Shown one piece after another: positions 28,547 to 29,470 of a DNA stretch of 64,000 bases. Numbering within the stretch: the stretch's first letter is position 1; each line of letters opens with the position of its first letter. The DNA is from Naegleria gruberi. Taxonomy: Eukaryota. Made by a program: the position numbers and the translations under genes. The stretch lies in the NCBI GenBank assembly GCA_000004985.1, contig GG738874.1. The stretch is one strand, 5' to 3'. The notes under the pieces were generated by a model. That model was not told the origin of the DNA and did not search any database. It saw only the letters and a program-made list of their open reading frames with translations.

Positions 28547-28848
28547 AAAGATAAAATTGAGACTTTAAGTTTCTCAATTAAAATCTACTCTAACAAGATG
28601 AGATGAAAAAATAGATTCTCATTAGAGGAGAGATTATCCATCACAAGCTTGTAAAATTGGTGATTTCAGCTATTCAAGATGAAAAACTACAAAGATCTGA
28701 ACCACAAACTTCCAAAAAAAGTGGAAGAACAACATTTAAAGATGAAATGTTAATTGAATACTTCAAAGTTGGAAATGTTTAGGATTGTTATTGTGTATTC
28801 TTTGATGTAATTGGATTAAACTTTATTGCTATTTTAAGTGTAAAAAAA

Positions 28849-29470
28849 TTGTTTGCAATAACAACAATAGCCCAACGAGGTTTTCACATCTCACATTTAT
28901 CATTCAACAAATTTAACCTTAAGAAAACATTAAATTACCATGTGCAGGAGATGTGGAAATGCAAAAATAACAATATTAATATTGATAAAAGCTTAATGGA
29001 CGCAATAATGGAAAAAACACTCTCCCCCACTGAAGATACTTTGAAAATTACTCCTGCTTCATGGAATTTACTGCTCACACAATGTGCTGCAAATAATCAA
29101 TGCATATTTTACCGATACTTAAAAAGATGACTGCACTTGGACATGCACCTTTCGACAATGTTCTTTCTATGATTCTAACATCATCTACTAATACCTGAAG
29201 AATTATTGGAAATCATTAAATTTATTGAAAAACAAAGCTTGATCAAATTAAATGTTCTTCACTATGGAGCCTTATTTAGTAAGCTATCATCAGCAAACGG
29301 AAATATTAAGGAGATTCTTGATTTATATAAGGTTTGCGTAGATTGTCATGAAGCAACCAAGTATTTCTAAAGTGAGGAATAGAAAAATAGGAAATACGTG
29401 ATCAAAAAGTGTTCCTCGTATTTCATGATGGAAAATGTTCATGTGGAGACTTTTGACAATAGTTTGGGAT
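28849..29470 (+). pseudogene. degenerate PLS-type pentatricopeptide-repeat gene with DYW deaminase-domain remnant (frameshifted, with in-frame stops)
   Basis: PPR-like ITPASWNLLLTQCAANNQ (compare SWNALIAGYAQNG) and MTALGHAPFDNVLSMILTSS (compare P-D..TFVSVLSAC). In a second frame: [14 protein letters not shown]...[20 protein letters not shown] (compare KLAIAFGL...NLRVCGDCHNAIKLIS). In a third frame: [21 protein letters not shown] (compare [25 protein letters not shown]). The three pieces are separated by TAA/TAG stops and a non-triplet spacing. Confidence 0.5.

Follow-up and report, generated by a model that had tools for sequence, protein, structure and literature searches.

The stretch of Naegleria gruberi DNA analysed here, 64,000 nucleotides of contig GG738874.1 (GenBank assembly GCA_000004985.1) and called the window in the following, contains on its plus strand, at 28,816-29,456, the relic of a gene for a DYW-type pentatricopeptide-repeat (PPR) protein, reduced to its final PPR repeats and the C-terminal tail of a DYW deaminase domain, which are distributed over three reading frames. 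With a probability of about 0.9 this feature would be a non-functional, unprocessed pseudogene, the remainder of a member of the N. gruberi lineage-specific family of DYW-type PLS-class PPR proteins, whose intact members are presumed to be mitochondrial C-to-U editing factors. A first-pass annotation, made from the sequence alone, had already proposed a decayed gene of this kind. The homology to the DYW_deaminase family, the collinearity with an intact paralog, the frameshifts and stops, and a divergence at the neutral level bear this out, and every peptide string that had been quoted was found in its place. The beginning of the region had been set at 28700; the relic itself starts at about 28816, or possibly at 28657.

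Layout and homology of the relic

The relic is best described together with its ortholog in a sister strain, an uninterrupted open reading frame (ORF) of 129 aa (P0001) on the metagenome contig L001, and with its closest intact paralog found, the N. gruberi protein P0016 (XP_002673292 / NAEGRDRAFT_51788, 860 aa). The pieces and the two neighbouring genes are:

28657..28782, plus strand: possible 5' extension, an open stretch in frame 28501 that runs to the TAG at 28780-82
28816..29100, plus strand: piece A, frame 28501, degenerate PPR tract ITPASWNLLLTQCAANNQ, ending KITPASWNLLLTQCAANNQ
29097..29198, plus strand: piece B, frame 28500, SMHILPILKKMTALGHAPFDNVLSMILTSSTNT, followed by TGA at 29196-98
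29194..29370, plus strand: piece C, frame 28501, the junction and the first part of the retained DYW tail, with TAA at 29368-70
29335..29349, plus strand: CVDCH, the CxDCH zinc-ligand motif, located by a motif scan and aligned via P0001 with CGDCH of the structures 9kfx and 7w86
29363..29389, plus strand: ISKVRNRKI, frame 28502, the normal continuation of the DYW domain
29391..29456, plus strand: C-terminal DYW piece, frame 28500, with TGA at 29454-56 at the final Trp codon
28019-28546, plus strand: ORF of 175 aa, the upstream neighbour of the relic
29656-30773, minus strand: short-chain dehydrogenase (SDR) gene with one intron, the downstream neighbour of the relic

The tail is recognised by the Pfam profile DYW_deaminase (PF14432), whose gathering cutoff is 24. 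Taken in single frames, one piece scores 15 bits (E 0.022), and the other, which is the C-terminal one, 21 bits (E 3e-4). The frame-stitched tail of the window reaches 44.7 bits (E 1.2e-11) and P0001 66.9 bits (E 1.4e-18), in both cases over profile positions 29/33-93 of 93 only. When the raw 64 kb were searched by tblastn with intact DYW proteins, as the first-pass annotation had suggested, significant matches (E < 0.01) appeared solely at 29209-29460 (E 7.6e-8 with P0006, a metagenome ORF described below, 4.7e-4 with P0031, and 0.003 with P0016), and no other DYW copy was found in the window by this search. An Rfam scan of 27000-31000 gave no family match. P0001 also aligns to the land-plant DYW structures in the PDB, namely the synthetic PPR-DYW protein 9kfx, DYW1 (7w86) and OTP86 (7o4e), with E-values from 6.8e-16 (9kfx) to 5.9e-9. 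These alignments comprise the C-terminal 47-65 residues and take in the CxDCH motif, the VRD motif and the CSCxD(Y/F)W ending. While the plant domains have the full deaminase fold with the HxE motif and perform RNA editing, the relic has only the C-terminal part, and in a broken frame.

No database protein other than P0001 is closely related to the stitched relic. When P0001 was the query of an exhaustive HMMER search, 1368 proteins were returned at E <= 1e-3. The ones examined are DYW proteins, and in each of them the match lies in the DYW domain, nearly always C-terminally. The named subset consists mostly of plant proteins, and it also includes P0010 (KAL9655006 of Willaertia magna), P0016, and P0031 (XP_002674667 / NAEGRDRAFT_70351, 662 aa), the last two being the intact N. 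gruberi paralogs for which a search had been recommended. The exhaustive search was needed for the paralogs because word-indexed protein searches reached none of them: the relic as query retrieved the ortholog only, and P0006 as query retrieved itself and two ENA proteins. A scan of JGI metagenomes with P0001 gave a single distant DYW locus (L007, 28% identity).

The upstream part is more difficult to recognise. The Pfam models PPR, PPR_1, PPR_2, and PPR_3 match neither the single pieces (E up to 10) nor the 269-aa stitched sequence (E up to 1), so that of the proposed profile check only the DYW half succeeded. The PPR-like helices that had been noticed by eye are nevertheless real as judged by collinearity: residues 54-212 of the stitched relic align in BLASTP with P0016 484-636 (E 4e-7), which are the last PPR repeats of that protein, piece A corresponding to residues ~484-570. 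The best Pfam PPR repeat of P0016 (556-586) lies within the aligned part. In shuffle controls against P0016 the whole upstream part has a z of 7.7 and the single-frame piece A a z of 5.4, and in both cases 0 of 300 shuffles reach the score. Piece B represents the second helix and the loop of the same PPR repeat with which piece A ends, with a frameshift at ~29098-29100 in between, and a second frameshift at ~29194-29197 leads back to frame 28501. In a fixed-register test against P0016 571-603 piece B scores 20, compared to -26.9 +/- 11.2 for shuffles (fraction 0.0003), and there is no signal in the neighbouring registers. Because piece B continues the P0016 alignment in register, the frame changes at ~29098 and ~29195 are true frameshifts. 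The PPR nature of the upstream part is thus demonstrated solely by its collinear likeness to the last repeats of a Naegleria paralog. The possible extension at 28657..28782 has, by itself, only a chance-level PPR-like match to P0016 (YFKVGNV.. versus YGKMGEI.., E 0.29), and it is uncertain whether it belongs to the relic.

Altogether the three frames are interrupted by four frameshifts and by in-frame stops at 28780, 29128, 29196, and 29368, and the relic is without an uninterrupted ORF of the length typical for the family, which is 660-860 aa in N. gruberi, for which at most ~0.9 kb would be available between the neighbouring genes. Within piece C the Pfam DYW match begins at ~29263, and the zinc motif is present in this piece as had been annotated. 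The following ISKVRNRKI is entered via a 2-nt (TA) deletion after 29361 and left via a 1-nt insertion at 29390, and it is identical to residues 99-107 of P0001 (100% in tblastn). What had been described as a 29-nt non-triplet spacer is only about 20 nt long and consists of this coding sequence in a shifted frame. The tail of the window ends with D-F-TGA, so that the C-terminal D-Y-W/D-F-W tripeptide is incomplete. The terminus had been annotated as having F for W, yet the F replaces the Y of DYW, and it is the W codon that has become TGA; L001 reads DFW followed by a stop. The second metal site of DYW domains is built by two His and the C-terminal CxC (PMC3239186). The CSC is present in the relic (29439-29447). 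At the FHHF position the window has FLVFH and L001 has FHVFH, and the possibly ligand-bearing N-terminal part of the domain is deleted.

Losses and the orthologous locus in a sister strain

P0016 has an intact ORF with a long PPR tract, an E motif (668-730), an E+ motif (735-762), and a full DYW domain (766-860) with HSEK. Its residues 1-483 have no counterpart in the relic, which thus misses ~480 N-terminal residues, and between the flanking genes there is no room for them. SWN and CxDCH are 94 aa apart in the relic but 263 aa apart in P0016, and accordingly about 167 internal residues are gone. This loss takes away the rest of the last repeat, removes both the E motif and the E+ motif together with the PG box, and reaches into the DYW domain. 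The E_motif and Eplus_motif profiles match P0016, P0031, and P0006, but they do not match the stitched relic or P0001. Of the PPR-like repeats only the last two or three have been retained, and of the DYW domain only the C-terminal 42-77 residues. The last 77 residues of the stitched relic align without gaps to P0016 784-860, with 47% identity (E 4e-19). Counted over 77 aa, the identity is 43% for the stitched window and 45% for the ORF of L001, and from CxDCH to the end 31 of 42 residues are identical to P0016, including the family-specific string ending with KI.

The catalytic motif of DYW deaminases, HxE(K), is located in helix 2 (Iyer et al. 2011, PMC3239186). In an ungapped alignment anchored at CxDCH the HSE of P0016, P0031, and P0010 corresponds to NVL in both the window and L001, and a nearby HYG is out of register and does not contain Glu. 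The suggested check of the HxE...CxxCH spacing therefore recovered CVDCH only. In the 35 residues before CVDCH just 4-7 of 35 are identical to DYW domains, compared to 26-34 of 42 in the last 42 residues. Placed in the DYW register, these 35 residues still outscore shuffles (fraction 0.000-0.042), and they also have a weak likeness to an S2-type PPR motif. They may be either a decayed, in-register DYW segment or a PPR motif of this type fused by the deletion, each with weak support. The HxE motif would be absent on whichever side of these residues the internal deletion falls.

L001 (ENA ERZ929261) is 7.4 kb long and collinear with window positions 25839-30949 at 96-98% nucleotide identity. The gene order is the same, with the 175-aa gene upstream and the SDR gene downstream of the DYW locus, and P0001 begins with an internal Met and ends in ...SCGDFW, followed by a stop. 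The two copies differ by the following lesions:

28780-82, window: TAG where L001 has TCA
after 29361, window: 2-nt deletion (TA)
29390, window: 1-nt insertion, followed by four substitutions
29416, window: His changed to Leu
29454-56, window: TGA where L001 has TGG (followed by TAA in L001)
upstream part, L001: deletions of 10, 3, and 5 nt, the last of them disrupting a frame that the window has open
29089-29208 of the window, L001: 120-nt deletion containing piece B

Given that the register test identifies piece B as ancestral coding sequence, the 120-nt segment 29089-29208 is ancestral and has been lost from L001 by deletion. The 5' truncation, the deletion of ~167 residues, and the loss of HxE are common to the window and L001, and are thus older than the split of the strains. 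As far as the two sequences tell, the decay is old and not very recent, the main losses preceding the strain split and each copy having gained its own lesions afterwards. Of the proposal that this is a pseudogene or a very recently disrupted gene, the first half remains.

The substitution rates are in line with this. The relic differs between window and L001 by 5.1% substitutions in the 5' part and 3.7% in the DYW part and has 8 indels over its whole length. The 175-aa gene differs by 0.19% and the SDR exons by 0.37-0.43%, with 0 indels in either of them, while intergenic DNA shows 2.3-7.7% substitutions and also contains indels. Next to these constrained neighbours the relic has the pattern that a neutrally evolving pseudogene would have. 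Counted by eye, the region of the 129-codon ORF contains one synonymous difference and at least six that are non-synonymous or disabling.

Some local features of this comparison are added here. The part of the relic at 28951-29091 has one difference to L001 in 141 nt (0.7%, compared to 3.7-5.1% elsewhere in the relic), where about six would be expected neutrally; the Poisson p is ~0.016 before correction for the choice of this stretch, and this may be chance. The 110 nt directly 3' of the stop of the 175-aa gene (28547-28656) are 100% conserved between the strains, with an abrupt rise of the divergence beyond. Directly after the DYW stop, L001 has 145 nt (L001:5738-5882) that are absent from the window (between 29456 and 29457), and the TGA at the final Trp codon of the window coincides exactly with the junction of this indel. 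The first 2.4 kb of L001 (1-2385, with called genes of 367 and 330 aa) do not match anywhere in the 64-kb window, and the break of collinearity at window position ~25839 suggests that these close strains differ by a rearrangement or a large indel.

Alternative explanations

The sister strain also provides the points that weigh against a pseudogene. L001 keeps the uninterrupted ORF, the last 42 residues of P0001 are as similar to intact homologs (26-34 of 42) as intact paralogs are to each other (71% identity over the whole 77-aa tail in the one pair compared), and for each of the four tail changes that can be polarised it is the window lineage that has the derived state. The lesions of the window moreover rest on a single assembly. 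Four window-derived changes are what would be expected under recent constraint in L001, but they have little weight because there are only four events (~1/16 by chance). One could imagine that the 129-aa ORF encodes a short, non-catalytic protein consisting of the DYW tail that is functional now or was so until very recently, so that the copy of strain NEG-M, the one in the window, would be a recent loss. Such a protein might act as a zinc-binding partner or as a decoy for other editing factors. It would fit that P0006, to which the tail is most closely related, is likewise short and PPR-less, has HSK instead of HSE, and ends with DFW. However, with HxE and the N-terminal part of the deaminase gone, deaminase activity is impossible. 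The ORF begins at an internal Met of a frame that was once longer and has been broken in L001 by the 5-nt deletion, and the in-frame 120-nt deletion that keeps it open has a chance of about 1 in 3 to occur by accident. The differences between the strains are nearly all non-synonymous or disabling and at the level of intergenic divergence, without a sign of purifying selection, and no such ORF is found beside the SDR ortholog in N. lovaniensis or on the metagenome contig L009. We therefore regard a functional tail protein as unlikely.

It is even harder to imagine that the gene is intact and that its stops and frameshifts are errors of sequencing or assembly, or are bypassed by tiny introns, an alternative code, or programmed frameshifting. 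L001 indeed reads straight through 29361-29395, several of the internal stops are TAA or TAG, and a GT...AG pair bounds the 19 nt at 29372-29390. Yet at least six independent lesions of different kinds are found within 700 nt and none in the 1.6 kb of flanking coding sequence, and E, E+, and HxE are still absent after repair of every frameshift. In addition, the NEG-M genome was assembled from Sanger reads, in which indel errors are rare. The single ways of rescue were considered separately. A ciliate-type code with TAA and TAG read as Gln leaves the TGA stops (29128-30 and 29196-98) and does not open any frame, and the neighbouring gene that was checked ends with TAA. The 120-nt segment has no GT-AG boundaries that would allow removing the stops as introns. 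The 19-nt candidate intron at 29372-29390 lies downstream of the in-frame TAA and is coding (ISKVRNRKI) in the ortholog and the paralogs. An intact gene is thus very improbable. Finally, the likeness of the motifs could be chance in AT-rich non-coding DNA, which would agree with the missing Pfam PPR match and with single-frame DYW pieces below the gathering score. This is refuted by the PF14432 scores of the stitched tail and the ortholog, by the only tblastn matches at E < 0.01 in 64 kb falling at the relic, and by the match to P0016, whose collinearity and register hold through the PPR as well as the DYW part. The remaining probability of chance is negligible. The old, unprocessed pseudogene accounts for the lesions, the shared losses, and the homology alike.

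Relatives, neighbourhood, and significance

P0006 is a 200-aa ORF consisting of E, E+, and DYW only (L003:1452-2054, ENA ERZ27315067, an amoeba-containing metagenome, and the same sample as that of L009). Among the relatives of the retained tail it is the closest, with 34 of 42 residues identical, a common string of 20 residues, and the same DFW ending, and as in the relic its catalytic motif is damaged. Unlike the relic, it has a single ORF that still encodes the E motif, the E+ motif including its PG box, and the DYW domain in full. It lacks a PPR tract, the next gene being ~200 nt away, and with a Peptidase_C26 gene on one side and an 813-aa gene on the other it is not the positional ortholog of the relic. 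It may be either a second decaying copy or a non-catalytic copy of the same subclade in another amoeba, and it seems that DYW copies of these amoebae have been truncated or catalytically impaired repeatedly. The short DYW proteins of plants resemble P0006 and the 129-aa ORF of L001 in bearing a DYW domain with few or no PPR repeats. However, they contain HxE and the whole domain and supply the catalysis, whereas the ORFs here have NVL or HSK, so that the analogy is one of form only.

In other genomes the locus can be traced by the SDR gene, whose orthologs are 61% identical in N. lovaniensis (L008, PYSW02000006.1) and 63% identical on L009. Neither of the two has a DYW sequence beside it. N. 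lovaniensis has, 5' of the SDR gene, two genes (298 and 1873 aa) that match the 294 and 1812-aa genes of the window in length and orientation, together with additional UDPGT and SARAF genes. On the 3' side, which is the side of the relic in N. gruberi, N. lovaniensis has different genes (BLOC1_2 and WD40).

The window, which is nuclear DNA of strain NEG-M, is AT-rich (31% GC) and gene-dense, and the relic sits in ~1.1 kb without a long ORF between the 175-aa ORF and the SDR gene. Two ORFs of the window are identical to the N. gruberi RefSeq proteins XP_002675996 (NAEGRDRAFT_68657) and XP_002676005, which are both encoded on a 401,612-bp scaffold, and the guess at a protist host, with Naegleria among the candidates, was correct. 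NAEGRDRAFT_68657, the 175-aa protein, is a Cys-rich predicted protein without a Pfam family. Outside N. gruberi its exact sequence was found solely in the sample of the sister strain, whose gene has one synonymous difference and encodes the identical protein. It contains CTDCH at 28460, whose likeness to the DYW zinc motif is at chance level (E 1.2). Further upstream, at 26214-27512, a 432-aa acidic protein with degenerate PVVEEPK/VEE repeats and a CAAX-like end (CTIM) is encoded, also without a Pfam match; its length varies by strain (432 and 435 aa, with 91% nucleotide identity and 15 gaps). Two regions are extremely AT-rich compared to the ~31% GC overall (1-2000 with 15% GC and 20001-22000 with 21%), and two 50-N assembly gaps are located at 2904-2953 and 39091-39140.

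N. gruberi is described as the first non-plant organism with reported DYW-type PPR proteins (PMC4202320; see also PMC3239186), and by the account in PMC4202320 it has 10-11 DYW-PPR genes (citing Knoop & Rudinger 2010) and only 2 verified mitochondrial C-to-U editing sites (citing Rudinger et al. 2011). The hope for a rare look at this family and for a lineage clue is therefore justified to a small extent only, given that the host is the textbook non-plant carrier according to these two sources. As a known family in a known host, the relic leaves the knowledge of RNA editing and of the distribution of the family unchanged. The copy presumably arose by duplication during the expansion of the DYW-PPR family and could then have become dispensable, which would fit the small number of known editing sites, and it would not yield a functional protein today. 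A more speculative reading, which we regard as unlikely, is based on the common 20-residue string and the lost catalytic Glu: the relic, the 129-aa ORF of L001, and P0006 might define a 'DFW' subclade of Naegleria-type DYW domains whose deaminase activity was lost long ago and which lasted for some time as short, PPR-poor, zinc-binding proteins with a non-catalytic role in the editing machinery, and of which the NEG-M copy would be the latest casualty. If this were true it would help to explain the excess of Naegleria DYW genes over editing sites.

As a probable pseudogene, the relic is a documented dead member of the small DYW-PPR family of N. gruberi, and it is one concrete case in agreement with the surplus of 10-11 DYW genes over two editing sites. 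It suggests that in a protist the members of this horizontally distributed family are duplicated, truncated, and left to decay, much like those of the PPR families in plants.

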